NCBI GenBank assembly: GCA_031459615.1
Contig: JAVKIE010000009.1
Location: 8,291 to 72,290, forward strand
Length of the DNA stretch: 64,000 nucleotides
Direction of reading: 5' to 3'
Origin: Candidatus Calidihabitans tengchongensis
Lineage (GTDB): Bacteria; Sysuimicrobiota; Sysuimicrobiia; Sysuimicrobiales; Kaftiobacteriaceae
Made by a program: the position numbers and the translations under genes. The notes under the pieces were generated by a model. It was not told where the DNA came from. It searched no databases and saw nothing but the letters and a program-made list of their open reading frames with translations. Below are positions 25,469 to 53,737 of this stretch, piece after piece (the stretch's first letter is position 1; each line of letters opens with the position of its first letter).

Positions 25469-25549
25469 CGGCGGGGCGGCAGGAGATTCCCGCGGGCGCA
25501 CCGAAAAACCTGGTAAACGTTTTCCACCGGCGGCGCGGGAGGGGAGACG

Positions 25550-33569: not shown

Positions 33570-34501
33570 GCGGGCGCGCACAGCCTCCCCCCAGGGTGGT
33601 CGCCACGGGCGCTGGGCCGGCGGGGACTCCGGAGCCGGGGGAAGGCGGCGCGCCCCGCTACCGCCTGGTGGTGGCCGACATCGACGGCACGCTGGTGACC
33701 AGCACGCGGGAGATCACCCCCCGGGTCCGGGCGGCGGTGCAGGCGGCGCGGCGGCGGGGCGTGCGGGTGTGCCTGGCCACCGGGCGCATGTGGCCGTCGG
33801 CGGAACCCTACGTCCGGCGCCTGGGCGCCGACCCGCCGATCATCCTGTACAACGGCGGCCTGGTCTACGACTTCGCCACCGGCACCGTCCTGCGCCGCGT
33901 CCCGCTGGACGTCGACCACGCCCGGGCGGTGCTGGACGTCCTGCGGGAGCACCCGGAGGTCCAGCCCCACCTGTACGTGAACGACCGGGTGTACACGGCC
34001 CGGCCCAGCGAGATCACCGACCAGTACCGGCGCAAGGACGGCATCCCCGTGGAGGTGGTGGGCGACCTGCGGGCCGTCCTGTCCGCGCCGCCGATGAAGA
34101 TCCTCATCATCGGGGCGCGGCCGGACCTGGAGCGGGTGCGCGCGCGGATCCGCCAGCTGCCCCGGCAGATCCACACGGTGTTCTCCGAGGACACCTACCT
34201 GGAAGTGCTGCCCCAGGGCTCGTCCAAAGGCGCGGCGCTGCAGTGGATGGCCCGCCACCTGGGGATCCCGCTGGAGCAGGTGGTGGCCGTGGGCGACAAC
34301 CTCAACGATCTGGAGATGATCCAGGTGGCGGGGCTGGGCGTGGCCATGGGCAACGCGCCCGCCGATCTGAAGGCCGCGGCGGACGTGGTCACCGCCTCCA
34401 ACGACGAGGAGGGGCTGGCGGAGGTCATCGAGCGGTGTGTGCTGCAGGGCACAGGACAGGACACGGCGCCGCCGCAGCCCGGGGCTGCGGCGGGATCCTG
34501 A
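33566..34501 (+). CDS. Cof-type HAD-IIB phosphatase.
   Basis: VVADIDGTL (motif I), GDNLNDLEM (motif IV). GTGA overlap with the preceding gene. Confidence 0.8.
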   Translation: MSGRAQPPPRVVATGAGPAGTPEPGEGGAPRYRLVVADIDGTLVTSTREITPRVRAAVQAARRRGVRVCLATGRMWPSAEPYVRRLGADPPIILYNGGLVYDFATGTVLRRVPLDVDHARAVLDVLREHPEVQPHLYVNDRVYTARPSEITDQYRRKDGIPVEVVGDLRAVLSAPPMKILIIGARPDLERVRARIRQLPRQIHTVFSEDTYLEVLPQGSSKGAALQWMARHLGIPLEQVVAVGDNLNDLEMIQVAGLGVAMGNAPADLKAAADVVTASNDEEGLAEVIERCVLQGTGQDTAPPQPGAAAGS

Positions 34502-34514
34502 AGGAGGGGGAAAT

Positions 34515-35537
34515 ATGCGCAGAGGGGCAGCACTGCTGGCCGTCATCCTGGGGGTGCTGACGCTGGCGGGCACCGCCGCCACCGCCCCGGCCCCCCGCCT
34601 GGTGGTGTACTCGGCGCTGCCGGACCTGGAGACGTCGCTGATCCACCGGGAGTTCACCCGCCGCACCGGCATCCAGGTGGACGCCCTGGTGGTCCCCGCG
34701 GCGGGCACGCTGCAGGCGCGGATCCGCACCGAGAAGGACCGCCCGCGGGCCGACGTGTTCGTGGGGGGATCCCGGGACTTCCACATCCCGCTGGCCCGGG
34801 AGGGGCTGCTGCTGCCGTACCGGTCGCCGGTGGCGGCCCAGGCCAAGATCAACCCGGCCTACCTGGACCCCGACGGCTACTGGCACGGGTGGTACCTGGG
34901 GGCTCTGGCCATCATCGTCAACACCGAGCGGTTCGAGCGGGAGCTGGCGCCCCGCGGCGTGCGCAAGCCCGCCACGTGGGACGACCTGATCCGGCCCGAG
35001 TTCCGCGGCCACTTTGTGATGCCCAGCCCCGTCACCACCGGGGGAGGGTACATCTTCGTGGCGGCCCAGATCTTCCGGCTGGGCGAGGAGCGCGCGTGGG
35101 CGTACCTGAGGGCCCTCAACGCCAACGCCTCCCAGTACACCCCCACCGCGCCGGGGACCATCACCCTGCTGGAGCGGGGAGAGGCCATCGTGGGGATGAT
35201 GTGGGCCCACGAGGCCATCGGCGCCCGGGTGCTGCGGGCCGCCCCCCTGGAGGTGACGGTGCCGCCGGACACCGGCTATGAGGTGGGCGCGGTGTCCATC
35301 GTCAAGGGCGGCCCCAACCCCGAGGGCGCCAAGGCCTACGTGGACTTCCTGATGACCCGGGTGCCCCAGGACATCAACGCCCGCTACGGATTCCGCTACC
35401 CCGTGCGGGCGGACGTCCCCGTGCCCATGGGGGCCACGCCGTTCGAGCAGCTGAAGTTCGTCGCCTACGACCTGGACTGGGCGATCCAGAACCAGGCGCG
35501 CGTCCGCGAGCGGTGGACGCGGGAGATCGGCCGGTAG
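34515..35537 (+). CDS. FbpA/AfuA/ThiB-family ABC substrate-binding protein. This is the Fe3+-type fold, and the substrate is uncertain.
   Basis: Signal peptide, an upstream AAGGAGG, and VVYSALP...FVGGS...GYWHG are family features. Confidence 0.75.
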   Translation: MRRGAALLAVILGVLTLAGTAATAPAPRLVVYSALPDLETSLIHREFTRRTGIQVDALVVPAAGTLQARIRTEKDRPRADVFVGGSRDFHIPLAREGLLLPYRSPVAAQAKINPAYLDPDGYWHGWYLGALAIIVNTERFERELAPRGVRKPATWDDLIRPEFRGHFVMPSPVTTGGGYIFVAAQIFRLGEERAWAYLRALNANASQYTPTAPGTITLLERGEAIVGMMWAHEAIGARVLRAAPLEVTVPPDTGYEVGAVSIVKGGPNPEGAKAYVDFLMTRVPQDINARYGFRYPVRADVPVPMGATPFEQLKFVAYDLDWAIQNQARVRERWTREIGR

Positions 35538-35543
35538 AGGGCC

Positions 35544-35583
35544 GGGCGGGCCGGCGTCTGCTGTCCGGGACGCCGGCCCGCCC
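35544..35583 (+). promoter_or_regulatory. Strong intercistronic stem-loop between the SBP gene and the permease gene.
   Basis: Perfect 15-16-bp stem gggcgggccggcgtc/gacgccggcccgccc with a 10-nt loop and no U-tract. Confidence 0.55.
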
Positions 35584-35605
35584 GTTGCCCGATGTGTGAG
35601 ACGAG

Positions 35606-37243
35606 GTGGAGTGCGTGGCTGTCCTGCGCTGGCAGGAGGTCCGCCGACAGGCCGCCGACCCGGGGCTGCTGCTGATGCTGCTGGGCACGGCCGTCGCGCT
35701 GGGGGCGTTCGTCCTGTACCCGGCGCTGCGGGTGCTCACCTACCCGACCCTCAGAGACTACCTGGGGATTCCCCACAGCCTGCGCTGGCTGCAGGCGGCG
35801 CGCAACAGCCTGATCATGATGGTCCTGTCCACCGCCACCGCCACGGGGGTGGGCCTGATCTTCGCCTTCGCCGTCACCCGGGAGGATATGCCGGGGCGGC
35901 GGCTGTTCCGGACGCTGGCGCTGCTGCCGCTGTTCGCCCCGCCGTTCATGGTGGCCTTCGCCTACATCCTCCTGTTCGGCCGCCAGGGGCTGATCACCCG
36001 CGGCCTGCTGGGGCTGGACGTGAACATCTTCGGCTGGCCGGGCCTGTGGCTGGTGCAGACGGTGGCGTTCTTCCCCCTGGCCATGCTGATCATCGCCGGC
36101 GTGCTGGAGTCCATCGCCCCCAGCCTGGAGCAGGCGGCCCGCAACCTGGGGGCGGACGAGTGGGCCGCGCTGCGCAGCGTCACCCTGGCCCTGGCGCGGC
36201 CCGGGGTGGCCGGGGCCATGCTGGTGGTTGCCATCTCCGTCCTGGCCGACTTCGGCAACGCCGTCCTCATCGCCGGGGGCTTTCCGCTGCTGGCCACCGA
36301 GGCGTGGTTCCGCATGGAGGGGATGGGCGACCTGACGGGGGCGGCGGTGGTGGTGGCGATGCTGCTGGTGCCGACCACGGCGCTGTTCTTCCTGGAGCGG
36401 TACTGGGTCAGCCGGCGGCTGTACGTGACCGTGACCGGCCGCGGCACGCGGCTGGACCGCCCGCCCCTGCCGGCGCCGCTGCGGGCGGCCCTGGTGGCGG
36501 TGTGCGCCCTGGTCAGCCTGCTGGTGGTCCTGGTGTACCTGGGAGTGGTGGCCGGGGCGTTCACGGCCGTGTGGGGGCGGGACTGGTCGCTGACGTTCGA
36601 CCACTGGCACCTGGCCTGGGAGCGCGCCGGCACGCTGCTGACCAGCCTGAAGATCGGCGCCCTGGCCGGAGCCATCACGGCCGTGGTGGGGGTGGTGGCC
36701 GCCTTCCTCACGTCCCGGGCCGTCCCCCTGCGCCGCGCCCTGGACTTCCTGGCGGTCCTGCCGGGGGCGATGCCCGGCGTCTTCGTGGGCGTGGGGTTCG
36801 TGCTGGCCTTCAACCGCACCCCCCTGGGCGGCACGCCCTGGCTGGTGGCCCTGGCGCTGGCCTTCTGGCACCTGCCCATGGGCTATCAGGCGGCGGCGGC
36901 GCGGCTGCGGCAGATCGAGCGGGCCATCGAGGAGGCCGCCATGAACCTCGGCGCCGGCGGCGTGCGGGTCCTGCTGGACGTGTACGTGCCGCTGCTGCTG
37001 CGCGGGCTGGTGGAGGCGTTCGCCGTCTCGTTCATCCGGGCGGTGACCAACGTCAGCATCGTGGTCTTCCTGGTGGCGCCGGGAACGATGGTGGCCACCT
37101 TCGTCATCCTGGGGCTGATCCAGAGCAACACCTGGGGTGCCGCCGCGGCGCTGACCACCATGCTGCTGGCGGTCACCTTCGCCGCCGTGGGGCTGACCGG
37201 CCTCGCGGTGGGCCGGGCGCTGCGGGGCCAGCCGGTGGGGTGA
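35606..37243 (+). CDS. Fused two-domain ABC permease (FbpB/ThiP type).
   Basis: About 12 TM helices with two EAA loops. Confidence 0.8.
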   Translation: MECVAVLRWQEVRRQAADPGLLLMLLGTAVALGAFVLYPALRVLTYPTLRDYLGIPHSLRWLQAARNSLIMMVLSTATATGVGLIFAFAVTREDMPGRRLFRTLALLPLFAPPFMVAFAYILLFGRQGLITRGLLGLDVNIFGWPGLWLVQTVAFFPLAMLIIAGVLESIAPSLEQAARNLGADEWAALRSVTLALARPGVAGAMLVVAISVLADFGNAVLIAGGFPLLATEAWFRMEGMGDLTGAAVVVAMLLVPTTALFFLERYWVSRRLYVTVTGRGTRLDRPPLPAPLRAALVAVCALVSLLVVLVYLGVVAGAFTAVWGRDWSLTFDHWHLAWERAGTLLTSLKIGALAGAITAVVGVVAAFLTSRAVPLRRALDFLAVLPGAMPGVFVGVGFVLAFNRTPLGGTPWLVALALAFWHLPMGYQAAAARLRQIERAIEEAAMNLGAGGVRVLLDVYVPLLLRGLVEAFAVSFIRAVTNVSIVVFLVAPGTMVATFVILGLIQSNTWGAAAALTTMLLAVTFAAVGLTGLAVGRALRGQPVG

Positions 37244-37247
37244 AGCG

Positions 37248-38303
37248 ATGGCGCGGGTGCGGCTGGAGGGCGTGAGCAAGCGCTTCGGCTCCACGGTGGC
37301 CGTGCGCGACGTGACCCTGGACGTCCCCGAAGGCTGCTTCTTCACCCTGCTGGGGCCCAGCGGGTGCGGCAAGACCACCACCCTGCGCATCGTGGCGGGG
37401 TTCCACCTGCCCGATCAGGGGGAGGTGTACATCGACGAGCAGCGGGTGACCCATCTCCCGCCCCACCGGCGGCGGACCGCCATGGTGTTCCAGGAGTACG
37501 CCCTGTTCCCGCACATGACCGTCTTCGAGAACGTGGCCTACGGCCTGCGGATGCGCCGCGTGCCCGAGGACCAGGTGCGGGCCCGGGTGGCCGCCGCCCT
37601 GGAGCTGGTGGGCCTCCCCGGACTGGGGCGCGCGTTTCCCTCCCAGCTGTCCGGCGGCCAGCAGCAGCGGGTCGCCCTGGCCCGGGCGCTGGTGGTGGAG
37701 CCCGACGTGCTGCTGCTGGACGAACCGCTGAGTAACCTGGACGCCAAGCTGCGGGTGCGGGTCCGGGGGGAGATCCGCCAGCTGCAGCGCCAGCTGGGCA
37801 AGACGGTCCTGTATGTGACCCACGACCAGGAGGAAGCCCTGGCCATCTCGGACCGCATCGCGGTCATGGAGGCGGGGCGCGTCCTGCAGGTGGGCACCCC
37901 GGTGGAGATCTACCACCGGCCCGCCCACCGGTTCGTGGCCGACTTTGTGGGCCTGGCGAACTTCCTCGACGGGGAGGTGATCGGTCCCGACGCCGTCCGC
38001 TGCGCGGGCGTGGTGGTCCGGCTGCGCGGGGACGGACTGTCGCCGGGGCGCGTGACGGTGATGCTGCGGCCCGAGGCCCTGCGCCTGCACCGCCAGCCGC
38101 CGCCGTCGGGAACCGTCCTGCCGGGCCGCATCACCGCCAGTAGCTTCCTGGGCACCCTGGCCCGGTACTGGGTGGCGGCCGGCGGGATCACCTGGATCGT
38201 GGACGTGCCGGCGCCGGGCGAGACGGTCTACGAAGGGGAGGTGTTCCTGGAGATTCCCCCGGAGCGGGTGCACGTGCTCCGGGACGACACCGCCAGCGCC
38301 TAA
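37248..38303 (+). CDS. ABC ATPase (FbpC/PotA type).
   Basis: GPSGCGKTT, LSGGQQQR, LLLDEPLSNLD. Confidence 0.9.
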   Translation: MARVRLEGVSKRFGSTVAVRDVTLDVPEGCFFTLLGPSGCGKTTTLRIVAGFHLPDQGEVYIDEQRVTHLPPHRRRTAMVFQEYALFPHMTVFENVAYGLRMRRVPEDQVRARVAAALELVGLPGLGRAFPSQLSGGQQQRVALARALVVEPDVLLLDEPLSNLDAKLRVRVRGEIRQLQRQLGKTVLYVTHDQEEALAISDRIAVMEAGRVLQVGTPVEIYHRPAHRFVADFVGLANFLDGEVIGPDAVRCAGVVVRLRGDGLSPGRVTVMLRPEALRLHRQPPPSGTVLPGRITASSFLGTLARYWVAAGGITWIVDVPAPGETVYEGEVFLEIPPERVHVLRDDTASA

Positions 38304-38327
38304 TCGCATCAGGGAGGAGGGCGACCG

Positions 38328-39293
38328 ATGGGCAAGTGGCAGCTGCCGCCGCCGGGCGGCCACATGGACAAACGCACCGGCATCTACCTGCAGACCATGA
38401 CCATGCGCGATGTGGAAGAACGCCTGAAGACCAACGACGTGCTGATCGTGCCGCTGGGATCTACCGAAGCCCACGGCCCCAACGCGCCCCTGGGGGAGGA
38501 CATCTTCCTGGTGACGCGCATGGCCGAGCTCGTGGCCGAGCGCACCGGGTGCACCGTCAGCGAGCCGCTGTGGTTCGGCTCGCACCCCTACCACCACATC
38601 GGCATGCCGGGCACCGTGCCGATTCCCGAAGACGTCTTCACCGCCTTCGTGCGGGCCATGATCGCCGGCTTCTGGAACATGGGGTTCCGCAAGCAGATCC
38701 TGCTCAACGGCCACGGCCAGGAGTACGTGATCCCCACCGCCATCCACCAGTTCGCCAAGCGCTACCGGGTGCCGGCGCTGATCGTGAACGTGAACTGGTA
38801 CCACGCCATCCCCGACCACTTCCGGCTGCGGGCGGAGGGCGGACCGTACGAGACCCCGTTCATCCACGCCGACGAGGTGGAGACCAGCTGGTGCCTGGCC
38901 CTGTTTCCGGAACTGATGAAGCAGGAGTGGGCGGTGGACAACACGCCGTTCGGCTTCCTGCCCGAAGGGCACGTGGACAAGGCCGGCAACCTCCTGCGGC
39001 GGCCCATCGCCTGGTACGGCCACGTGGGCGCCGGACCCATCGAAGTGAAGGCCTATCTGGAGGGGGTCGTGGGCCGGCCCACCCTGGCCCGGGCCGAGAA
39101 GGCCCTGCCGGGGGTGGAGGCCCTGCTGGACTACCTGGAGCGGCTGGTCACCGACATCCTGCAGAAGTTCCCGCCCGGCCAGCTGCCTCCCGCGCACCTG
39201 CTGACCGAGCGGGACGAGAGGGAGCTGGAGGAGATCCTCAAGGGGCCCGCCCGCGGGGGGAAGAGCATCTACAGCCTGGGGTGGCCGCCGTAG
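38328..39293 (+). CDS. Creatininase-family amidohydrolase.
   Basis: LIVPLGSTEAHGPNAPLGED is the creatininase-fold metal-binding motif. Confidence 0.8.
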   Translation: MGKWQLPPPGGHMDKRTGIYLQTMTMRDVEERLKTNDVLIVPLGSTEAHGPNAPLGEDIFLVTRMAELVAERTGCTVSEPLWFGSHPYHHIGMPGTVPIPEDVFTAFVRAMIAGFWNMGFRKQILLNGHGQEYVIPTAIHQFAKRYRVPALIVNVNWYHAIPDHFRLRAEGGPYETPFIHADEVETSWCLALFPELMKQEWAVDNTPFGFLPEGHVDKAGNLLRRPIAWYGHVGAGPIEVKAYLEGVVGRPTLARAEKALPGVEALLDYLERLVTDILQKFPPGQLPPAHLLTERDERELEEILKGPARGGKSIYSLGWPP

Positions 39294-39410
39294 GGAGGAG
39301 AGCAACGGGATCGGGGATCCGGAATCTGGGATGAGGGAGTGGGGATCCGGGGACCGGTCCGCCGACAGCCGCTGGTCCCGGGTCCCGGATGACCGACGCC
39401 GGCAGAGGCC

Positions 39411-40226
39411 GTGAAGATCAGCCTGGTGATCTCCGTCGAGGAGACCTCGTTCGCCGCCGTGGCGGCGCAGGCGGACTGGGCCCGGGCCATCGAGCGGGCA
39501 GCCGCGCTGGGCTACGACGGGGTGGAGCTGGCAGTGCGCGACCCCCAGGCGGTGGATGCCGACGCGCTGTGGGAGCGCACGCGCCAGGCCGGCCTCACCG
39601 TCCCCGCCCTGGGCACCGGGCAGGCCTACCTGGCCGACGGGCTGAGCCTCACCGCCCGGGATCCCGGCATCCGCCGGCGGGCCGTGGAGCGCCTGCGGGC
39701 GCACCTTGACCTGGCGGCCCGGTGGGGGGCCCTGGTGATCGTGGGCCTGGTGCGCGGGCGGATCGAGGACGGGCGGGAGAGCGCCGACCGCCGCCTGGAG
39801 GAGGCGCTACAGCGCCTGCTGCCCGACGCCGAGCGGCTGGGGGTGCGACTGGCCATCGAGCCCATCAACCGGTACGAGACCGACTACCTGGCCACGGTGG
39901 GCGAGGTCCTGCAGCTCCTGGACCGGGTCAGGTCGCCCCGGGTGGGGGTGCTGGCCGACACCTTCCACATGAACATCGAGGAGGTCTCCATCGAGGATGC
40001 CCTGCGCCACGGCCGGGACCGGCTGTTCCACGTCCACGTGGCCGACAGCAACCGGCGGGCGCCGGGGTGGGGGCACCTGGACTTCCGGAGGATCCTGGGC
40101 GTGCTGGAGGAGATCGGGTACGGCGGGTTTCTGTCGGCGGAGATCCTGCCCCTGCCCGATCCGGAGCAGGCGGCGGCGCAGGCGGTGCGCTACCTGCGGG
40201 CCCTGCGCGCGACCGCACCATCCTGA
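39411..40226 (+). CDS. Sugar-phosphate isomerase/epimerase (xylose-isomerase-like TIM barrel).
   Basis: LAIEPINRYE ... LADTFHMNIEE ... HVHVADSNR. Confidence 0.8.
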   Translation: MKISLVISVEETSFAAVAAQADWARAIERAAALGYDGVELAVRDPQAVDADALWERTRQAGLTVPALGTGQAYLADGLSLTARDPGIRRRAVERLRAHLDLAARWGALVIVGLVRGRIEDGRESADRRLEEALQRLLPDAERLGVRLAIEPINRYETDYLATVGEVLQLLDRVRSPRVGVLADTFHMNIEEVSIEDALRHGRDRLFHVHVADSNRRAPGWGHLDFRRILGVLEEIGYGGFLSAEILPLPDPEQAAAQAVRYLRALRATAPS

Positions 40227-40239
40227 AGGAGGGGAGACG

Positions 40240-41253
40240 ATGAGACGGATCGTGGTGGCGGTTCTGGCCGTGCTGCTGGCGTCGCTGGCCGGGCACGCGG
40301 CGCCGGCGGGGAAGGTGACGGTGCTGTGCAGTCCCAACGTGGAGTGGTGCGACCTGATCCGGGCCGAATTTCCCAAGGCCACGGGCATCGCGCTGGAGTT
40401 CGTGCGCCTCAGTTCCGGCGAGGCCCTGGCCCGGCTGCGGGCCGAGCGGGCCAACCCGGTGTTCGACGTGTGGTTCGGCGGCACCGGCGACCCGCACATC
40501 GTGGCCAACGAGGAGGGGCTGACCGAATTCTACCGGCCCCGGGCGTGGGCGGACCTGCGGCCCGAGCTGCGGGAGGCGGTGGCCGGCAAGTACATCCCGC
40601 TGTACGCCGGCATTCTGGGATGGGCCATCAATCCCTCGCTGCTGCGGGAGAAGAACATCCCCGAGCCCCGGCGGTGGGAGGACCTGGCCGACCCGCGGCT
40701 GCGGGGGCTGGTGGCGTATCCCAACCCCAACACCTCCGGGACCGGGTACACCATGCTGGCCACGGTGGTCCAGCTGTTCGGGGAGGAGAAGGCCTTTGAT
40801 CTCCTCAAGCGGATCCACCGCAACGTGGCCCAGTACACCCGGGGAGGTGCCGATCCCGGCGTGCTGACCGGGCGCGGGGAGGTGGCGGTGGGCGTCACGT
40901 TCGTCCACGACGCGGTCCTGCAGGTGCTGCGGGGGTTCCCCATCACCTACGGGGCAGCCCGGGACGGCACCGGCTACGAGATCGGAGGGCTGAGCCTGGT
41001 CAAGGGTGCGCCCAACCGCAGTCACGGCATCACCTTCATCGAGTGGGCCCTCACCCCCGCCGCCCAGGCTCTGGCGGCGCAGGCGGGCTCCTACCAGATC
41101 CCGTCCAACTCCAAGACGCCGGTTCCGTCGGTGGCGCCGCGGTTTGAGGCGTTCAACGTGATCAAGTACGACTTCCTGAAGTACGGGAAGGCGTCGGTGC
41201 GGGACGGGCTGGTCAACCGGTGGACGAAGGAGGTCTTCCCCCTGCCCAAGTAG
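40240..41253 (+). CDS. Second FbpA/ThiB-family ABC substrate-binding protein, a paralog of the one at 34515.
   Basis: Signal peptide; the same fold and length as the SBP at 34515-35537. Confidence 0.75.
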   Translation: MRRIVVAVLAVLLASLAGHAAPAGKVTVLCSPNVEWCDLIRAEFPKATGIALEFVRLSSGEALARLRAERANPVFDVWFGGTGDPHIVANEEGLTEFYRPRAWADLRPELREAVAGKYIPLYAGILGWAINPSLLREKNIPEPRRWEDLADPRLRGLVAYPNPNTSGTGYTMLATVVQLFGEEKAFDLLKRIHRNVAQYTRGGADPGVLTGRGEVAVGVTFVHDAVLQVLRGFPITYGAARDGTGYEIGGLSLVKGAPNRSHGITFIEWALTPAAQALAAQAGSYQIPSNSKTPVPSVAPRFEAFNVIKYDFLKYGKASVRDGLVNRWTKEVFPLPK

Positions 41254-41265
41254 GGGGAGCGGTCC

Positions 41266-43494
41266 ATGGCCCAGGTGCTGGTCGCTCCCGCCCGTCCGGC
41301 CGTCCGGGTCGTGCCGTCCCTGACGGCGTGGGGGGCGCTGGCGGCCCTGGCCGCCCTGGCCCTGCCGTGGGCGCGCGTGGGGCGCGACCTGGGGGTTTTC
41401 GTCCCGCAGACTCTCGGCCTGGACCTGGTGGGACGGGACTGGCGGGTGGCCGTGGCGGTGGCAGCCGGGGCGCTGGCCGCAGTCGCCGGCGGCGCCCCGC
41501 TGCCCCTGGCCGCCCGCGGGCGGGCGGCACTCATCCTGGCCGCGGTCGGGCTGGCCGCGACGGCCCTCGCGGTGGGGCAGCGGGGTGCGCCCATGGGGCC
41601 GGCGGCCTGGGCGGCGATCCTGGGCTACCTGGCCCTGGCCGGCGCCGCGCTGTCCGCGGCGGGATACCTCCACGCCGACCCGTTCATCGCCGTCGGGATC
41701 CTCTGGGCGTGGGGGTTCGTGGCGGCGTTCATCGTGTACCCGCTGGTGGCCGTGCTGCAGGCCAGCGTGGTGGTGCGCGGACATCTCACCCTGGAGGTGG
41801 TCCGGGAGACGGTCCGCTCGCCGATCTTCCTGATGGTCAACAACCCCGCCACCCCCGTCCACGAAGGACGCCTGGCGGCCGGGGTGGGCGCGGCGGCCGG
41901 CACCGCGGCCGCCCTGGCCGCCGCAGGGTTGCGCCGCGGCGGCCGGACCGCGCTGGCCTGGGGGCTGCGGGCGGGGGTGGGCGTGGGGGCGCTGGCGGCG
42001 CTGTACCTGGGGTTCGGGGCGGTGCGCAACAGCGTCCTGCTGGCGGTGGTGGTCAGCACCATCTCCACCGGGCTGGGCTTTCTGTTTGCCCTGCTGGCCG
42101 AGCGATCCCGGCTGCCGCTGCGCCGGCTGTTCGGACCTGTGTCCATCCTGCCGATCATCACGCCGCCGTTCGTCCTGGGGCTGGCCATCATCTACCTGTT
42201 CGGGCGGCGGGGGTTCATCACGCACCGGGTGCTGGGGCTGTCCACCGCGGCGTTCTTCGGCCCCCTGGGGGTGGCGCTGGCCCAGATCCTGGCCTACACC
42301 CCCATCGCCTTCCTGGTCCTGCAGGGGGTGGTGCGGGCGCTGGACATCTCGCAGGAGGAGGCCGCCGAGACCCTGGGCGCTCCCCGCTGGCACGTCCTGC
42401 GCACGGTGATCTGGCCGCTGGCGCGCCCGGGGCTGGCCAACGCCTTCCTGCTGGTGGCCATCGAGAGCCTGGCCGACTTCGGCAACCCCATCGTGGTGGG
42501 AGGCGACAAGCCCTACCTGGCCACCGAGGTGTTCTTCTCCCTGGTGGGCCGGTACAACCCCCACGAAGCGGCGGTGTTCGGCGCGACGCTGCTCCTGATG
42601 ACGTTTGCCATCTTCTTCCTCCAGCAGCGGTGGATCGGGCGGGCTGGCTACGTCACCGTGACCGGGCGCCCCACCGCCGGATACCGGCGGCCCCTGCCGG
42701 CGGGTCTGGAGTACGGCGGCAACGCCCTGTTCCTCCTGTGGATCCTGCTGACCGCGGTGCTGTACGGCTCGGTGGCCGTGGGCAGCCTCACCAAGTTGTG
42801 GGGGTTTGACTATACCCTGACGGCCGCCCACTACCGGGGACTGTCGCCCACCGGGTGGGCGGTGTTCCGCACGTCCGCGGTGCTGGCGGCGATCGCCGCC
42901 GTCCCCTCCACGGCGGTCGGGTTCGGGATCGGCTATCTCGTGACCCGCTATGCGTTTGTGGGCCGGCGGGCCCTGGAGGTGGCGTCGATGCTGTCCTTCG
43001 CCACGCCCGGCACCGTGATGGGGATCGGCTACATCCTGGCCTTCAACCAGGGCCCTCTGCTGCTGACCGGCACCGAGCTCATCATTATCCTGGCGTTCGT
43101 ATTCCGCAACATGCCGGTGGCGCTGCGGGCGGGGGTGGCGGCGGTCCTGCAGATCGACCGGTCCCTGGAAGAAGCCTCCACCGTCCTGGCGGCCGGCGCG
43201 GCGACCACCCTCCGACGGGTGGTGGTGCCGCTGGTGTGGCCGGCCCTGCTGGCGGGCGCGGTGTTCAGCTTCGTCCGGGCGATGACCGCCATCAGCCAGG
43301 TCATCTTCCTGATCACGCCGCGCACCAACCTGGCCACCACCCAGATTCTCTCCTACGTGAACTACGGCACCGTGGGCCTGGCCGCCGCCCTGTCGTGGGT
43401 GCTGGTGGTCTTCATGGCGGCCGTCATCGTGGCCCTGTACCTGGCGACCCAGCGGCTGGGCGCGCGCCACGTGGGGGTGGTGCCGACCCTGTGA
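41266..43494 (+). CDS. Fused two-domain ABC permease (FbpB type, 742 aa).
   Basis: Many TM helices and two EAA-like loops. Confidence 0.8.
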   Translation: MAQVLVAPARPAVRVVPSLTAWGALAALAALALPWARVGRDLGVFVPQTLGLDLVGRDWRVAVAVAAGALAAVAGGAPLPLAARGRAALILAAVGLAATALAVGQRGAPMGPAAWAAILGYLALAGAALSAAGYLHADPFIAVGILWAWGFVAAFIVYPLVAVLQASVVVRGHLTLEVVRETVRSPIFLMVNNPATPVHEGRLAAGVGAAAGTAAALAAAGLRRGGRTALAWGLRAGVGVGALAALYLGFGAVRNSVLLAVVVSTISTGLGFLFALLAERSRLPLRRLFGPVSILPIITPPFVLGLAIIYLFGRRGFITHRVLGLSTAAFFGPLGVALAQILAYTPIAFLVLQGVVRALDISQEEAAETLGAPRWHVLRTVIWPLARPGLANAFLLVAIESLADFGNPIVVGGDKPYLATEVFFSLVGRYNPHEAAVFGATLLLMTFAIFFLQQRWIGRAGYVTVTGRPTAGYRRPLPAGLEYGGNALFLLWILLTAVLYGSVAVGSLTKLWGFDYTLTAAHYRGLSPTGWAVFRTSAVLAAIAAVPSTAVGFGIGYLVTRYAFVGRRALEVASMLSFATPGTVMGIGYILAFNQGPLLLTGTELIIILAFVFRNMPVALRAGVAAVLQIDRSLEEASTVLAAGAATTLRRVVVPLVWPALLAGAVFSFVRAMTAISQVIFLITPRTNLATTQILSYVNYGTVGLAAALSWVLVVFMAAVIVALYLATQRLGARHVGVVPTL

Positions 43495-43504
43495 GGGAGA
43501 TGCC

Positions 43505-44566
43505 GTGACAGCCACAGACCAGGCCGTCCGCGTCCGCCTGGACGGGGTGACCAAGACATTCGGCCCGGTGGTGGCGGTGGACCGGGTGACCCTGGACATC
43601 CCGCCGGGGCGTCTGGTCACGCTCCTGGGCCCGTCGGGGTGCGGGAAGACCACCACCCTGCGGATCATCGCGGGGCTGGAGAAGCCCACCGCGGGGCGCG
43701 TGTACATCGGCGAGGAGGACGTCACCCCGCTGCCGGCGGCCAGCCGGGGAGTGACCCTGGTCTTCCAGGCCTACGCCCTGTTCCCGCACCTCACGGTCTT
43801 CGAGAACGTCGCCTACGGCCTGCGGGTACGGCGCCTGCCCGAGTCCGAGATCCGCCGGCGGGTGGCGGAGGCGATGGCCCTGGTGGGACTGCCAGGGCTG
43901 GAAGACCGCTACCCGGCCCAGCTGTCCGGCGGCCAGCAGCAGCGGGTGGCGGTGGCCCGGGCCCTGGTGATGCAGCCCCGCGTGCTGCTGTTCGACGAGC
44001 CGCTGTCTAACCTGGACGCCAAGCTGCGCAAGCGGGTGCGGGCGGAGATCCGCGACCTGCAGCGGCGGCTGGGCATCACCACCATCTATGTCACCCACGA
44101 CCAGGCCGAGGCCCTGGCCCTGTCGGACGTGGTGGTGGTGATGAACCAGGGAAAGGTGGAGCAGGTGGGCACGCCCGAGGAGCTGTACCGGCGGCCGGCC
44201 AGCCGCTTTGTGGCCGACTTCATCGGAGAGGCCAACCTCCTGCCCGGCCACTACCACGACGGCCAGGTGACCCTGGGGCCGTACCGCTTCGCCTTCCGGC
44301 AGGAGGGCGCACCGTCCGGGGCGGTCACAGTGATGGTCCGCCCGGAAGCGGTCGCCATCGCCACCGACGGGGAGGGCCTGCCCGGCCGGGTGCGGGCGGG
44401 GTTCTTCATGGGCATGACGCTGGAGTACCTGGTCGAGACCCTCCTGGGCGAGGTGACGGCGGTCGAGCCGCTGTCCGAGCGGGGCCTGCTGCCGCCGGGG
44501 ACGTCGGTGGTCCTGCGGATGAGGCCGGCGGGTGTGTACCTGCTGCCGGGGGAGGATAGACCGTGA
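43505..44566 (+). CDS. ABC ATPase (FbpC/PotA type).
   Basis: GPSGCGKTT, LSGGQQQR, LLFDEPLSNLD. Confidence 0.9.
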   Translation: MTATDQAVRVRLDGVTKTFGPVVAVDRVTLDIPPGRLVTLLGPSGCGKTTTLRIIAGLEKPTAGRVYIGEEDVTPLPAASRGVTLVFQAYALFPHLTVFENVAYGLRVRRLPESEIRRRVAEAMALVGLPGLEDRYPAQLSGGQQQRVAVARALVMQPRVLLFDEPLSNLDAKLRKRVRAEIRDLQRRLGITTIYVTHDQAEALALSDVVVVMNQGKVEQVGTPEELYRRPASRFVADFIGEANLLPGHYHDGQVTLGPYRFAFRQEGAPSGAVTVMVRPEAVAIATDGEGLPGRVRAGFFMGMTLEYLVETLLGEVTAVEPLSERGLLPPGTSVVLRMRPAGVYLLPGEDRP

Positions 44567-45678
44567 GGCGCGGTGCGCGGGCGCGGACCAGGGGCCCGTC
44601 GGCCGGACAGCAGGGCCCCCTGGGTGCACCAGGGAGGGTGGCCGGCCGCACGGCCGGGGGCGCGGCGTTCTCCCCCGACGCGTTTCTTCCCCCCGCAGCC
44701 GTCGCCCGCATCACCGACGTCCGCATTCAGCGGCCGCAGGTGGTGGAGGAGGAGGCCGCCGCCCGGCGGCGGCGGGAGCAGATCGCGCCCGACGGGCGCC
44801 TGGTCCTGCTGGCCGCCGACCACCCGGCGCGCGGCGTCCTGCGGGCCGGGGCGGACCCGCTGGCCATGGGCAGCCGCCGGGCGCTGCTGGCCCGCATCCT
44901 CCGGGTCCTGATCGGCCGGGCGGACGGCGTGATGGCCACCCCGGACATCCTGGAGGAGCTGATGATCCTCCAGCGGCTCGACAAGGAGCGCGGCGGGCCG
45001 GGCTTTCTGGACCACAAGGTGCTGGTCGGGTGCATGAACCGGGGCGGGCTGCACGGCAGCGCCTTCGAGCTGGACGACCGCATGACGGCCTTCACCCCCG
45101 AGCGCATCGCCTCCCTGGGGCTGGACGGGGCCAAGGTCATGGTGCGGGTGGACCTCTCCGATCCGGCCACCCTGCGGACCCTGGAGGCCTGCGCCCGGGC
45201 GGTGACCGCCTGCCACCAGCGGGGGCTGCCGGTGTTCCTGGAGGTGATGATGGTCGCCCGCGGCCGGGAGGGCTACCGGGTGGTCCGGACGCCGGAAGCG
45301 CTGGTGACGGTGGTGAACATCGCCACCGGTCTGGGGGCCTCCTCTGCGCGGACGTGGCTGAAGGTGCCCTACTGCCCGCAGTTCGAGCGGGTGGCGGAGG
45401 CCACCACGTGCCCCCTGCTGCTGCTGGGCGGCGAGACGCGGGGGGCGCCGGGTCCCCTGCTGGAGGAGGTGGCCGCGGCGATGCGGGCCGGCCCGTCGGT
45501 GCGGGGAGTCCTGGTGGGCCGCAGCCTCACCTACCCCGGTCCCGAAGACCCCTACGCCGCCGCCGAGGCCCTGTGGGCGGTGGTGCACGAGAAGGCCTCG
45601 GTGGACGAGGCCCTGGCGAGGATGGCGGAGGCCCGCGGGCGCCATATGGACCGCTTCGCCCACCTGGCGGCGACCTAG
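44563..45678 (+). CDS. Class-I aldolase superfamily protein (DeoC/FbaB/LacD or DUF2090-like TIM barrel).
   Basis: Weak family-level resemblance only; the long Arg-rich N-terminus is unusual. GTGA overlap with the ATPase gene. Confidence 0.45.
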   Translation: MRRGARARTRGPSAGQQGPLGAPGRVAGRTAGGAAFSPDAFLPPAAVARITDVRIQRPQVVEEEAAARRRREQIAPDGRLVLLAADHPARGVLRAGADPLAMGSRRALLARILRVLIGRADGVMATPDILEELMILQRLDKERGGPGFLDHKVLVGCMNRGGLHGSAFELDDRMTAFTPERIASLGLDGAKVMVRVDLSDPATLRTLEACARAVTACHQRGLPVFLEVMMVARGREGYRVVRTPEALVTVVNIATGLGASSARTWLKVPYCPQFERVAEATTCPLLLLGGETRGAPGPLLEEVAAAMRAGPSVRGVLVGRSLTYPGPEDPYAAAEALWAVVHEKASVDEALARMAEARGRHMDRFAHLAAT

Positions 45679-45716
45679 CCGTGGCCGCCCGACCTCAGAG
45701 GGAAGGAGGGACGACG

Positions 45717-46505
45717 GTGCTGCGGTTTTCCGCGAACCTGACCATGCTGTTCACCGAGCGCCCGTTCCTGGAGCGCTTCGAAGCTGCCGCCCGCGCCGGG
45801 TTCCGGGCGGTGGAGTACATGTTCCCCTACCAGGAGGACACCGACGCCATCGCCCGCGCCCTGCGGGAGCTGCGGCTGGAGCAGGTCCTGTTCAACCTGC
45901 CGGCCGGAGACTGGGCCCGGGGCGACCGGGGGATCGCCACCGACCCCGCCCGGCGCGCCGAGTTCCGGGAGGGGGTGGAGCGGGCGGTGGACCTGGCGCG
46001 CCGGTTCGGCTGCCGGCGCCTGAACTGCCTGGTGGGCCGCCGGCTGGCCGAGGTCCCCGCCGACGAGCAGTGGCGGTGCCTGGTGGACAACCTGCGGCAT
46101 GCGGCCCAGGCGCTGGCGCCCCACGGCATCACGCTGCTGGTGGAGCCCATCAACACCTACGACATCCCCGAGTTCTTCCTGACCACCTCCGCCCAGGCCA
46201 TCCGCCTGCTGGACGAGGTGGGCGCGCCCAACGCGGCGTTGCAGTACGACGTCTACCACATGCAGCGCATGGAGGGGAACCTCGTGCACACCCTGCGCCG
46301 CCTGCACGGGCGCATCGGCCACGTGCAGGTGGCCGACTCCCCGGACCGCCACGAGCCCGGCACCGGCGAGATCCACTACCCGTACGTGCTGCGCCAGCTG
46401 GAGGCGCTGGGCTATGCGGGATTCGTGGGGCTGGAGTACCGGCCCAGCCGGACCACGGAGGAGAGCCTGGGGTGGATCGAAGCGATGGGGTTCAGCCGGG
46501 GCTGA
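45717..46505 (+). CDS. hyi: Hydroxypyruvate isomerase / 2-oxo-tetronate isomerase family.
   Basis: LRFSANLTMLF ... LLVEPIN ... QYDVYHMQ ... HVQVAD. The GTG start has an upstream GGAAGGAGG. Confidence 0.8.
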   Translation: MLRFSANLTMLFTERPFLERFEAAARAGFRAVEYMFPYQEDTDAIARALRELRLEQVLFNLPAGDWARGDRGIATDPARRAEFREGVERAVDLARRFGCRRLNCLVGRRLAEVPADEQWRCLVDNLRHAAQALAPHGITLLVEPINTYDIPEFFLTTSAQAIRLLDEVGAPNAALQYDVYHMQRMEGNLVHTLRRLHGRIGHVQVADSPDRHEPGTGEIHYPYVLRQLEALGYAGFVGLEYRPSRTTEESLGWIEAMGFSRG

Positions 46506-46645: not shown

Positions 46646-47986
46646 ATGCGTGGGATAGCCGCGGCCGGTCTGGTGCTGGCGCTGCTGGTGCTCGCTCCGG
46701 CCTATGCACAGCAGGCGGTGACCCTCACCGCCTGGACCATCGGTCCGGACAACCCGTCGGTGACCCGCTTTTCCAACCTGCAGGCGGCGGCGGAGCGGCT
46801 CAACGCCGACCTGCGGCGGGAGGGCGCGGGGGTCCAGGTCAAGGTGGAGGGGTTCTTCGATACGACCGACTGGGATCCGTTCCTGCGCCGGGTCCTGCTG
46901 GCGTTCCAGGGCGGGAACCCTCCCGACATCATCCAGGCGTCGCACCCGCTGACCACCACCTGGGCGGCGGCCGGGTACATCATCGCCCTGGACGACCAGA
47001 TCCCCCGCTACCGGCAGTTCGCCGACGTGGTGGAGTCCCTGTGGGACGCGGTGCGCTACCGCGGCAAGATCTACGGCATCCCCCAGGACACCGAAGCGCG
47101 CCCCCTGTACTTCAACAAGACGCTGCTCCGGCAGCTGGGGTGGACCGACCAGCAGATCGCCGCCCTGCCCCAGCGCATCGTCCGGGGCGAGTTCACCTGG
47201 GAGGACGTGCTGGCCACCGCCCGGGAGGCCGTGCAGAAGAAGGTCGTGGAATCCGGCAAGGGCTACTACCACCGGCCGCGCCCGGGCCCGGACTTCCTGC
47301 AGTGGTACCGGTCCTTCGGGGGACGCGACTTTGACGCCGCCAGCGGCAAGCTGGTCTTCACCCGGGAGGCAGCCCTGCGCTACTTCCGCTGGCTGCGCGC
47401 GGCCGTGGACGCCGGGGTGCTGGAACGCAACCGGCTGGACGGTGACTGGAACCGCTTCCACCAGACCGTCACCGACGGCAAGGTGCTGTTCTTCTCAGGC
47501 GGGACGTGGAACTGGGCCGAGTGGGAGCAGCAGTGGGTGACCCGCAAGGGCGGACAGGAGTGGCTGTTCGCCAACTTCGGCTTCGCCCCCCACCCCACCT
47601 GGCGGCAGGGCGGGCGGCCCATCACCCTCTCCCAGCCCCAGGCCTACATGGTTTCCTCCGCGTCCAAGAACAAGGCGCTGGCGGTGCGGCTGCTGGCCTA
47701 CACCACGGTACCGGACCTGGACGCCAAGCACGCGGTGGGCAGCGCCCACCTGCCGGTGCTGAAGACCACCGCCCGGCTGATCGGCGACCGCTTCCTGAAG
47801 GAGGTGAGCTACCTGCTCACCTACACCTCTTTCCAGCCGCCCCATCCCGACCTGCCCCGCTGGAATGACGCCCTGTTCCGGGGCGTCTCGGCGGTGGAGT
47901 CCGGGCAGGTGACGCCCGAGCAGGCGGTGGAGGTGGTGGCCACCGAGATGCAGCGGGCCCTGCGGGACCAGATCATCGTCGAGTAA
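46646..47986 (+). CDS. CUT1-type ABC substrate-binding protein, in a glycerophosphodiester/G3P-like context.
   Basis: Signal peptide with an upstream GAGGAGG. Co-operonic with the GDPD genes. Confidence 0.8.
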   Translation: MRGIAAAGLVLALLVLAPAYAQQAVTLTAWTIGPDNPSVTRFSNLQAAAERLNADLRREGAGVQVKVEGFFDTTDWDPFLRRVLLAFQGGNPPDIIQASHPLTTTWAAAGYIIALDDQIPRYRQFADVVESLWDAVRYRGKIYGIPQDTEARPLYFNKTLLRQLGWTDQQIAALPQRIVRGEFTWEDVLATAREAVQKKVVESGKGYYHRPRPGPDFLQWYRSFGGRDFDAASGKLVFTREAALRYFRWLRAAVDAGVLERNRLDGDWNRFHQTVTDGKVLFFSGGTWNWAEWEQQWVTRKGGQEWLFANFGFAPHPTWRQGGRPITLSQPQAYMVSSASKNKALAVRLLAYTTVPDLDAKHAVGSAHLPVLKTTARLIGDRFLKEVSYLLTYTSFQPPHPDLPRWNDALFRGVSAVESGQVTPEQAVEVVATEMQRALRDQIIVE

Positions 47987-53272: not shown

Positions 53273-53577
53273 CACCCCCACCAGCAGCGTGAGGTGGGGG
53301 TGCTGATGACGCCGGCGATCCCGGGGATGGAGCGGACGAACTGCACCGCCGCGCGGTCCGCCGCCAGGCCTTCGGTCAGGTCCATGTGGATCAGCACCAT
53401 CTTGCCGGCCCCCGACAGGCGGCCCACCAGGGCGGGTAGGGAGAGGACCGATCCGGTCAGCAGGAAGGCCGTGGAGACGGGCGAGGCCGCGGCCACGCCC
53501 GCGGCGGCCTCGCTGCGAACGGCGGCGATGACCGGGCGGGCTCGCAGCGGCGCCCAGGGATCGGCAGGTGAGGCCAT
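53272..53577 (-). pseudogene. Truncated glycerol-3-phosphate-responsive antiterminator (GlpP family). Only the first roughly 100 of about 185 residues remain, ending at the ugpE junction.
   Basis: PVIAAVRSE...LLTG.VL.L..LV...AGK.VLIHMDL.EGL..D.AAVQF...GIAGVISTPTS matches the GlpP N-terminal half. The C-terminal half is absent in all frames. It has its own GAGG SD. Confidence 0.55.
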
Positions 53578-53696
53578 GACGGGGCCTCATTTCGGGGCGG
53601 GCGCACGCCCTTCCTGTGCGGCGCAGGAGATGCGGCGACGGGGGCCGAAACCATCCCGCGCAGGTAGTCGCACGTGGCAGGACGGAGTCGCGGAGA

Positions 53697-53737
53697 CAGT
53701 CCTGCCGGCCGGAGTGCCGGCGGCCGGCAGGACTTTT
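53697..53737 (+). terminator. Orphan intrinsic-terminator-like hairpin in the 320-bp gap between the glpP fragment and the GH31 gene.
   Basis: 13-bp perfect stem agtcctgccggcc/ggccggcaggact with an 11-nt loop, then TTTTg. The nearest plus-strand gene ends about 1.2 kb upstream. Confidence 0.45.

Follow-up and report, generated by a model that had tools for sequence, protein, structure and literature searches.

The gene array and its inositol enzymes

We analysed a 64,000-nt stretch of a contig from Candidatus Calidihabitans tengchongensis (JAVKIE010000009.1, positions 8,291 to 72,290 of the forward strand; below, the window, with coordinates counted from its first nucleotide), and in particular the genes at 34515-46505, which encode two sets of ATP-binding cassette (ABC) transporter components interleaved with a creatininase-fold hydrolase and several TIM-barrel proteins. 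Genes were called from third-position GC and start-codon context; in this DNA of ~72% G+C, third-position GC places all genes between 25.5 and 52.5 kb on the + strand. The genes named in the original prediction are present with exactly the limits given there, and gene calls and Pfam domains agree; the coordinates 34515-46505 are sound, but they delimit merely the middle part of a ~27-kb single-strand array that extends over 25517-52509. The overlapping stops and starts described for this part were not seen: its intergenic gaps measure 4-117 nt, and genuine overlaps of 1-4 nt occur solely in the flanking genes. The one possible overlap, between the second ATPase gene and the open reading frame (ORF) of the Cgl0159-type protein, is gone if the NCBI start at 44638 is used.

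The predicted products of three genes exceed the cutoffs of NCBI models for inositol enzymes. IolM (26619-27788), a scyllo-inosose 3-dehydrogenase of the Zn-dependent alcohol dehydrogenase family, scores 575.4 bits on NF041097 (cutoff 450). IolN (38328-39293), a 3-dehydro-scyllo-inosose hydrolase of the creatininase fold, scores 527.3 bits on NF041098 (cutoff 245) in a match spanning model positions 1-307 of 307, and is 69% identical to a Thermotoga sp. SG1 protein that bears this name. IolO (39411-40226), a 5-keto-L-gluconate epimerase with an AP_endonuc_2 TIM barrel, scores 329.4 bits on NF041099 (cutoff 300), and its closest solved structure is T. maritima TM_0416 (2ZVR, 254 bits; next match 95). 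This gene had been taken for a sugar-phosphate isomerase; the TIM barrel was rightly recognised, but the protein belongs with the epimerases of the IolO family. C-4 epimerisation has been confirmed for a homologous step (PMC12632266). A Gfo/Idh/MocA dehydrogenase (GFO; 32550-33569, Pfam) is a candidate inositol 2-dehydrogenase that may act like IolG: inositol dehydrogenases are its top named solved relatives, and the GFO that Thermotoga/Pseudothermotoga loci encode between IolM and IolN shares 39-44% identity with it. Just before it, the IolI-like TIM barrel TIM2 (31698-32522), with B. subtilis IolI (1I60, 139 bits) as best solved relative, is a candidate inosose isomerase, and the triad of TIM2, GFO and a HAD-type phosphatase gene is kept across Armatimonadota loci.

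Because IolM, IolN and IolO all score above their cutoffs and are joined by an IolG-like dehydrogenase, we assign the array with high confidence to an inositol-type route like that of T. maritima, the intermediates of which have been set out for the TM0411-TM0416 operon (PMC5931981). The earlier impression that the enzymes form one catabolic route has thus held up, and the route, then thought to match no nameable pathway, can be given a name. No family match to the canonical IolB, IolC, IolD, IolE or IolA was found among the genes scanned across the window.

The substrate originally envisaged, a cyclic amide, lactam or hydantoin, or some other C-N compound, that a creatininase-type amidohydrolase would open, is very improbable. 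IolN does match the creatininase-fold family PF02633 with 166 bits, but on the creatininase equivalog model TIGR04448 it reaches only 79.5 bits against a cutoff of 235, far from its score on the IolN model; its closeness to the Thermotoga protein and its IolM, IolO and IolG-like neighbours also argue for inositol, and the domain matches of the array include neither an aminotransferase, deaminase or amidase nor any other nitrogen-handling gene. The bond that IolN cuts is a C-C bond in a diketo-inositol rather than an amide bond.

Species-representative genomes were scanned with an IolN alignment, and 80 fetched loci (labels such as L005) were compared with the window proteins. At least 552 species-level genomes, among them metagenome-assembled genomes (MAGs) of Asgard and Bathyarchaeia, encode an IolN relative, and IolM is present in 51 and IolO in 50 of the 80 IolN loci. 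Armatimonadota-type loci (L008-L019, L005 and L006) are syntenic with the window and follow the order LacI-IolM-(CUT1)-TIM-GFO-HAD-SBP1-permease-ATPase-IolN-IolO-SBP2-permease-ATPase-(Cgl0159-PFK)-Hyi-GarR, where SBP stands for solute-binding protein and PFK for phosphofructokinase. Five Pseudothermotoga loci, one of them from an isolate genome (L044), carry IolM, GFO, IolN, a CUT2 system and a PfkB kinase, and then an AfuA-like SBP followed by a fused permease, an ATPase, a Cof-type HAD and IolO.

AfuABC-type transporters and the Cof-type phosphatase

The first transporter set consists of SBP1 (34515-35537), a divergent AfuA/P5PA-family protein with a signal peptide, a fused two-domain permease of 545 aa (35606-37243; two BPD_transp_1 stretches, PhnU2-like over 470 residues) and an ABC ATPase (37248-38303; ABC_tran and TOBE_2). 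The second consists of the AfuA-type SBP2 (40240-41253), likewise with a signal peptide, a fused permease of 742 aa (41266-43494; again two BPD_transp_1 stretches) and an ATPase (43505-44566; ABC_tran and TOBE_2). Pfam matches of the SBPs are to SBP_bac_6/11/1/8. Identities between the sets of 33% (SBP), 41% (permease) and 61% (ATPase) bear out the earlier reading of them as paralogous; on these sequence grounds they are old paralogues, and both SBP types have separate orthologues of 77-89% identity in related genomes.

Comparison with solved binders places both proteins near sugar-phosphate and related organophosphate receptors. SBP2 is closest to AfuA (PDB 4R72-75/8X1A, 226 bits) and P5PA (6WCE, 197 bits), SBP1 to P5PA (144 bits) and AfuA (130 bits). 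By contrast, SBP2 scores 47 bits with PhnS-like and at most 43 with FbpA-type structures, and SBP1 59 bits with FutA1, at most 44 with FbpA and 36 with PotD; ferric-binding, phosphonate, polyamine, sulfate and molybdate binders taken together do not exceed 59 bits against either. AfuABC imports the 6-phosphates of glucose and fructose and the 7-phosphate of sedoheptulose, and was long annotated as an iron transporter before being shown not to be one (PMC4546632). P5PA binds pyridoxal phosphate (PMC8427247).

We give almost no credence to ferric iron uptake by the two ABC systems in the manner of FbpABC/HitABC. Such a function is suggested by generic family resemblance, by the JGI label 'iron(III) transport system substrate-binding protein' carried by relatives and by the top NCBIfam match of ATPase 2, a ferric ABC ATPase model (394.7 bits, below the cutoff of 496). 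However, the low FbpA-type scores just given contrast with those for AfuA, itself no iron transporter, and the FbpA iron ligands Tyr195/Tyr196 (H. influenzae numbering) are matched by Met-Met in SBP1 and, when SBP2 is aligned with SBP1, by Val-Thr in SBP2. Placement of the SBPs among ferric binders with retained tyrosine ligands was therefore checked with a negative outcome, in agreement with the view first taken of these transporters. With FbpABC/HitABC and the 2-aminoethylphosphonate systems PhnSTUV/PhnS2 the window systems share the SBP structural class, a fused permease and their best sub-threshold NCBIfam matches, but they differ in scoring far under the cutoffs (161 and 164.7 bits on the PhnS2 model TIGR03261, cutoff 392.75) and in the missing iron-ligand tyrosines.

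The binding pockets were compared using an AfuA sequence rebuilt from a printed alignment, the numbering of which reproduces all 19 pocket residues named in PMC4546632 and PMC8427247. AfuA contacts its sugar phosphates through H205/D206/E229 together with S37/T150 (PMC4546632, PMC8427247). SBP2, 37% identical to AfuA, keeps 15 of the 19 residues, including the phosphate cradle (S37, G38, T60, S148, G149, T150 and G185) and the ring binders Y103, H205, D206, E229 and Q269. SBP1, 31% identical to AfuA, keeps six, with changes that include S37A, T150G, D206E, Q269R and F203W; at the phosphate-binding positions S37/T60/S148/G149/T150/G185 it has A37, S60, T148, G149, G150 and A185, and its sugar motif reads H-E-E, a conservative change at 206 from the H-D-E of SBP2. 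The SBP1 pocket is identical in its orthologue from another genome (L5_SBP1), which points to a conserved second specificity, and since this pocket differs from the near-canonical one of SBP2, the ligands of the two proteins should differ. L006, L014, L016 and Pseudothermotoga have yet another type of pocket, the third (T60P, Q269R). From this evidence, we consider it probable that both systems carry out AfuABC-type organophosphate import.

A Cof-type HAD-IIB phosphatase is encoded just upstream (33566-34501 as maximal ORF; 203 bits on TIGR00099, cutoff 137; Hydrolase_3), its gene ending 13 nt before SBP1. Because the family match begins near residue 32, the true start is probably at 33668 or 33695. 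An AfuA-like SBP lies within 10 kb of IolN in 13 Armatimonadota-type and five Pseudothermotoga loci, the latter with proteins 40-42% identical to AfuA, and a weak match (28% identity) does so in one Bacillota locus (L032). Most of these Armatimonadota-type loci also hold a Cof-type HAD, as do all five from Pseudothermotoga, where the equivalent gene adjoins the AfuABC-like genes. Since AfuABC-type importers and Cof-type phosphatases are associated with IolG, IolM, IolN and IolO in two distant phyla, we propose inositol phosphates or similar phosphorylated cyclitols as ligands, although for inositol phosphate specifically we would put the chances slightly short of even. A search of the literature for AfuA-type inositol-phosphate transport found no description of it. 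InoEFGK, the unrelated transporter of the Thermotoga cluster, is reported to bind inositol phosphate in a 2013 study by Rodionova et al.

The near-AfuA pocket of SBP2 tells against this proposal and makes plain hexose-6-phosphate a live alternative ligand. Taken further, the systems could be ordinary AfuABC importers of hexose and heptose phosphates (glucose 6-, fructose 6- and sedoheptulose 7-phosphate) that share an operon with the inositol genes without a functional link, and the Cgl0159-type protein and pyrophosphate (PPi)-dependent PFK of related loci could be a fructose-1,6-bisphosphate (FBP) aldolase/PFK pair for fructose-6-phosphate. We regard this as distinctly unlikely as an account of the whole. 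Retention of H205/D206/E229 and S37/T60/S148/T150 in SBP2 agrees with it, as do the JGI label of DhnA-type FBP aldolase on relatives of the aldolase, the FBP-binding enzymes among the structural neighbours of the latter and the name of the kinase family, diphosphate-fructose-6-phosphate 1-phosphotransferase. On the other hand, AfuABC-like genes stand between or beside IolN and IolO, together with a phosphatase that would waste imported hexose phosphate, in two distant phyla; the SBP1 pocket is unlike that of AfuA at 13 of 19 positions; pairs of Cgl0159-type and PFK genes adjoin IolN/IolO in loci devoid of AfuABC (L022, L038 and L088); and an FBP aldolase leaves the conserved Hyi-GarR pair unexplained. 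Compared with AfuABC of Actinobacillus pleuropneumoniae and Citrobacter rodentium (PDB 4R72-4R75), the three-gene layout and fused two-domain permease are shared, whereas the placement in an inositol catabolic operon with a phosphatase and the presence of two or three divergent copies per locus are different.

Two further observations concern the transporter genes. The N-terminal ~250 residues of permease 2 (41266-42020) form a hydrophobic extension with no domain match, kept in orthologues of 741-743 aa (L005 and L006). An identical 15-nt sequence, ATCCTGAAGGAGGGG, occupies the ribosome-binding region upstream of both SBP genes (34500-34514 and 40225-40239), although the two proteins are only 33% identical.

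A downstream module and the proposed pathway

Beyond the second transporter, the array encodes a Cgl0159-family class-I aldolase-like (beta/alpha)8 protein (44638-45678, the ORF opening at 44563; a DeoC-like barrel with 265.7 bits on PF22649, cutoff 27). The NCBI start at 44638 gives 346 aa, has GGGAGG upstream and is favoured because homologues are 340-352 aa long. The closest structure is Cgl0159 itself (3FOK, 199 bits), and a structure model made with 42 sequences (pLDDT 86) superimposes on it with a Foldseek TM of 0.88. After 3FOK the model matches only class-I Schiff-base enzymes that handle dihydroxyacetone phosphate (DHAP), namely ADH synthase with bound FBP/DHAP, LsrF, archaeal FBP aldolase and tagatose-1,6-bisphosphate aldolase. 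Cgl0159 is presumably the same as cg0198 and lies in the C. glutamicum iol cluster. The literature terms cg0198 a conserved hypothetical protein (PMC4609165). K166, E202 and K242 are invariant in 42 Cgl0159-family sequences, in a spacing that resembles the LacD catalytic residues cited in PMC9007349. A related domain, DUF2090, has been proposed as an aldolase of the canonical pathway, where the 2-deoxy analogue is cleaved to DHAP and malonate semialdehyde (PMC9007349).

Next in the array stands a TIM barrel of the hydroxypyruvate isomerase (Hyi)/2-oxo-tetronate isomerase type (45717-46505; AP_endonuc_2; 367.2 bits on TIGR03234, cutoff 353.45), and further downstream on the same + strand a tartronate semialdehyde (2-hydroxy-3-oxopropionate) reductase, GarR (56330-57229; 393.5 bits on TIGR01505, cutoff 340.75), which confirms the GarR-like reductase earlier placed at 56330. 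The window GarR is 67-76% identical to genes that adjoin Hyi in L005 and L006. A GarR orthologue directly follows Hyi in L005, L006, L009, L015 and L018, and the Hyi-GarR pair comes after ATPase 2 in L005, L015 and L018; in the window GarR is displaced by ~10 kb, the intervening DNA holding a block of CUT1-type transport and glycerophosphodiester phosphodiesterase (GDPD) genes, an orphan UgpE-like gene and a GH31 gene. Both enzymes being above their cutoffs and adjacent in related loci, a route ending at C3 acids of the glycerate/hydroxypyruvate level, as first suggested, is plausible.

In L009, the closest long-enough contig (IolN 90% identical), a PPi-PFK-family gene separates Cgl0159 from Hyi (compared over L009 17286-18600), within a one-strand order of ATPase2-Cgl0159-PFK-Hyi-GarR. 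The kinase of such relatives scores 504-522 bits on NF010675, a model of the PPi-dependent PFK subfamily, and a Cgl0159-like gene is paired with it beside IolN/IolO in L006, L009, L022, L038 and L088, loci from Armatimonadota, Anaerolineales, Clostridia and one unassigned metagenome contig. The corresponding gap in the window (45679-45716) is 38 nt long, with no PFK remnant.

We suggest, and on balance slightly favour as the best explanation of the whole, that the array serves the uptake and degradation of inositol and, most likely, of phosphorylated inositol compounds; gene identities and synteny are computational results, while all substrates, what the phosphatase does and which reaction the aldolase catalyses are inferred. 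Inositol monophosphates or near analogues would enter by way of the AfuABC-type systems and lose their phosphate to the Cof-type HAD after import, and two CUT1 systems would take up free polyols or cyclitols and, with two GDPDs, probably glycerophospho-inositol-type diesters. The IolG-like dehydrogenase would then oxidise inositol to scyllo-inosose, with the IolI-like isomerase probably broadening the range of usable inositol isomers; IolM would convert scyllo-inosose to the 1,3-diketone, IolN would hydrolyse a C-C bond of the diketone to give 5-keto-L-gluconate, and IolO would turn the latter into D-tagaturonate. In T. maritima, no growth occurs on free inositol (PMC3750489) and TM0415 produces Ins(1)P (PMC5931981).

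For the lower branch, the 5-keto-hexonate would be phosphorylated at its hydroxymethyl-ketone end, by the PPi-PFK-family enzyme encoded beside the aldolase in related loci; in the window, from which that gene is absent, the kinase would be encoded elsewhere or not needed. The Cgl0159-type aldolase would cleave the phosphorylated compound to DHAP and tartronate semialdehyde, a tentative proposal that we rate as somewhat less likely than not, and Hyi and the reductase at 56330 would carry the semialdehyde to glycerate. By our own derivation, D-tagaturonate and 5-keto-L-gluconate can be seen as 2-ketohexoses with a C6 carboxylate, to which PFK-like phosphorylation at C1 and class-I cleavage would be suited, and a retro-aldol between C3 and C4 of a 5-keto-hexonate would yield a dihydroxyacetone unit and tartronate semialdehyde, the substrate of GarR. 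As this semialdehyde would be L (S) by Fischer bookkeeping, Hyi could route it via achiral hydroxypyruvate before D-glycerate is formed. By analogy, again as we derive it, the logic would parallel glycolysis and the canonical IolC/IolJ step, in which a 2-deoxy substrate gives malonate semialdehyde. In that step (IolC with IolJ, or IolC-DUF2090) the hydroxymethyl-ketone end is likewise phosphorylated before aldol cleavage to DHAP and a C3 acid semialdehyde; here, however, the 2-hydroxyl would be retained, the product would be tartronate rather than malonate semialdehyde, and the partner kinase of the relatives is of the PFK family (PPi type), not PfkB. The E. coli lower pathways for glyoxylate and glucarate (Gcl-Hyi-GlxR; GarL-GarR) share Hyi and tartronate-semialdehyde reductase, but the window has no glyoxylate carboligase, GarL/GarD or glycerate kinase, and its tartronate semialdehyde would come from a hexuronate-level aldolase. 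No description of such a downstream branch was found in the literature searched.

Several observations weigh against this explanation. At the entry to the pathway, GFO reaches only 162 bits on the IolG model TIGR04380 (cutoff 355), less than membership of the Bacillus-type IolG family would call for, and L005 holds a TIM2-GFO-HAD-AfuABC-AfuABC-Hyi-GarR block with no IolM, IolN or IolO within 10 kb. In the lower branch, Hyi passes the 2-oxo-tetronate isomerase model NF043033 as well (339.7 bits, cutoff 325). We favour Hyi, as neither OtnK nor OtnC is present and the reductase stays below the cutoff of the L-threonate dehydrogenase model (173 bits, cutoff 350), and on the same grounds an L-threonate/erythronate (LtnD-OtnI) pathway for Hyi/GarR was rejected. 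The branch is incomplete in the window: no PFK-family gene was found there by tblastn, and gene scans of the window for PfkB, FGGY and other kinases returned none except a galactokinase on the opposite strand. Cgl0159 homologues occur in non-inositol contexts too (L089 and L090), and in Thermoflexus Hyi or GarR follows IolO in loci with UxaE, 2-hydroxyacid dehydrogenase, FGGY kinase and 6-phosphogluconate dehydrogenase in place of Cgl0159/PFK, so that Hyi/GarR are not exclusively tied to the aldolase. Mutual exclusion of UxaE (13 loci) and Cgl0159 (seven loci) near IolN was considered as evidence and discarded, as zero shared loci against ~1 expected is not significant.

Some of these observations would be accommodated if D-tagaturonate were degraded conventionally by UxaE/UxuB/UxuA or UxaB/UxaA, KdgK and KdgA encoded elsewhere, with Cgl0159, Hyi and the reductase serving other substrates, for instance in glyoxylate/glycerate metabolism or on another sugar acid. 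We rate this as unlikely, yet deserving serious attention. The known Thermotoga route proceeds via UxaE, which is found near IolN in 13 of 82 loci, and the lack of a kinase in the window, the UxaE-bearing Thermoflexus loci and the unrelated contexts of Cgl0159 homologues all agree with it. Against it, the 13 Armatimonadota-type IolN loci are all devoid of UxaE within 10 kb, Cgl0159, Hyi and GarR belong to the same-strand array, and the order IolN-IolO-Cgl0159-PFK recurs in at least three taxonomically assigned lineages.

The missing kinase would find another explanation in a variant of the inositol-phosphate pathway that retains the phosphate, a variant we think unlikely. Imported myo-inositol 1- or 3-phosphate would be processed by IolG, IolM, IolN and IolO with the phosphate on the ring; hydrolysis of the diketone would turn the carbon between the carbonyls into the C6 hydroxymethyl group and give 6-phospho-5-keto-L-gluconate directly, which the Cgl0159-type aldolase would split to DHAP and tartronate semialdehyde with no need of a kinase. 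If this held, retention of the phosphate would be the reason why the cluster has two importers for organophosphates and an aldolase, yet lacks a kinase, and the PPi-PFK-like kinase of relatives would supply the equivalent phosphate when free inositol is used. The conserved phosphatase counts against this variant as the sole route.

Accessory genes, related loci and wider meaning

The first gene of the array encodes a LacI-family transcription regulator (25517-26590; Pfam LacI and Peripla_BP_1/3), and other loci, L013 and L014 among them, likewise have a LacI homologue upstream of IolM. Two exact copies of the 13-bp palindrome GGTGACTGTCACC (25368-25380 and 25455-25467) lie 87 bp apart in the gap of 239 nt before the window gene, with no further match in the window at 0-1 mismatch. 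This candidate pair may be an operator pair for the cluster; the palindrome was not found in any of the fetched relative loci in which it was sought. Consensus scans of 25-59.5 kb gave zero promoter-like sites and terminator-like sites almost only within coding sequence, and both are uninformative at 72% GC; Rfam at gathering thresholds had no match in the window. The IolN-IolO spacer (39294-39410) is, at 117 nt, unusually long and contains repeated GGGGATCCGG motifs. A possible ~95-nt hairpin within it, of -64.7 kcal/mol, is not significantly better than those of shuffled sequences (z = -1.6).

Two CUT1-type systems are also encoded in the array. System A, which has no ATPase of its own (SBP at 27863-29167, permeases at 29244-30080 and 30077-30919; Pfam), is a candidate importer of a free cyclitol or polyol, the closest solved relatives of its SBP being the polyol SBPs 5IAI and 4RYA (sorbitol). 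It is followed by TIM1 (30916-31698), a xylose-isomerase-like, weakly Hyi-like TIM barrel (AP_endonuc_2; TIGR03234 143 bits, sub-cutoff). System C, identified by domain matches, comprises an SBP (46646-47986), permeases (48029-48997 and 48997-49821) and an ATPase (49818-50864), and is followed by two GDPD-family genes (50861-51775 and 51772-52509; PF03009, 62.9 and 184 bits). A homologue of system C adjoins IolN in L022 and L036, and a GDPD homologue lies near IolN in L022, L036 and L056, so that Anaerolineales and Thermoflexus have both system C and GDPDs beside IolN, and Bathyarchaeota a GDPD. This recurrence suggests glycerophospho-inositol-type diesters as a further input.

The array ends against an orphan UgpE-like permease gene on the - strand (52481-53281; NF008210, 377 bits, cutoff 297), which is convergent with the second GDPD gene, overlaps its end by 29 nt and is without ugpA, ugpB or ugpC partners. 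The next ~330 nt (53282-53615) have no clean coding signal, and the gene and this noncoding stretch together look like a rearrangement scar where the cluster was interrupted. A GH31 alpha-xylosidase/glucosidase-like gene (53616-56279) lies between the inositol array and GarR, and 59191-63776 holds a further CUT1 system for sugar uptake besides the galactokinase (- strand); the first 1-25 kb of the window contain housekeeping and cell-envelope genes. From the GH31, galactokinase and CUT1 genes, the wider region appears to be a carbohydrate-utilisation island beside housekeeping/cell-envelope genes.

Among the related loci, IolN relatives of 63-66% identity occur in MAGs of Asgard archaea (Promethearchaeota, Hodarchaeota), Bathyarchaeia and Thermoproteota, frequently accompanied by IolM and an IolO-like gene (L053, L055, L056, L058, L060-L062, L064, L065, L068, L070, L071 and L078-L082). 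In many loci from Chloroflexota, Bacillota and other groups outside Armatimonadota (L021, L023, L024, L032-L036, L057, L059, L084 and others), IolM is adjoined by another Zn-dependent alcohol dehydrogenase that shares ~30% identity with it, at the position taken by the GFO-type IolG in Armatimonadota and Thermotogota; this second enzyme may have replaced the first dehydrogenase non-homologously. Between IolN and IolO, the Thermoflexus locus L035 (5644-13215) encodes UxaE, a D-2-hydroxyacid dehydrogenase, an FGGY kinase, 6-phosphogluconate dehydrogenase and an SDR, a gene set that suggests a third lower branch, leading from hexuronate to 6-phosphogluconate and the pentose-phosphate pathway.

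The window array and the T. maritima cluster (TM0411-TM0416: IolG, IolM, IolN, IolO; PMC5931981, PMC3750489) have in common IolM, IolN and IolO above equivalog cutoffs, a homologous GFO-type dehydrogenase and clustering with ABC uptake systems and a repressor. They differ in the regulator, LacI-type here and ROK-type there, and in uptake, with two AfuABC-type and two CUT1-type systems here and InoEFGK there; the window array lacks a PfkB kinase (TM0415) and has no UxaE nearby. Extra in the window are the Cof-type phosphatase, the IolI-like isomerase, two GDPDs, the Cgl0159-type aldolase, Hyi and tartronate-semialdehyde reductase. The enzyme families, the core of the pathway (NCBI models name IolM, IolN and IolO) and the transporter family are thus already known. 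New are the presence of divergent AfuABC-type importers, in two or three copies, with a phosphatase inside inositol catabolic clusters, the breadth of four transporters in one array, and a recurrent putative lower module of PFK-family kinase, Cgl0159-type aldolase, Hyi and tartronate-semialdehyde reductase; none of the three was found described in the literature searched. Overall, this is a new combination of known parts and not a new type of chemistry.

Abundant sources of organic phosphorus and carbon include inositol phosphates, phosphatidylinositol head groups and di-myo-inositol phosphate. Little is known about the ways in which bacteria take them up, and the Thermotoga-type pathway has been characterised in one organism only. 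The spread of IolN relatives over hundreds of species-level genomes indicates that this pathway is widespread, and its lower part seems to exist in at least two alternative forms. If the proposed ligands are right, a subgroup of the AfuABC transporters that are widely misannotated as 'iron(III)' systems would be inositol-phosphate importers, and many annotations would be corrected, as close relatives of SBP2 alone number in thousands; the structurally solved Cgl0159 family would likewise be assigned a function. Should the phosphate-retaining variant hold, the kinase, aldolase, Hyi and reductase would together make up an undescribed lower branch of inositol/hexuronate catabolism, a 'uronate-level glycolysis'.

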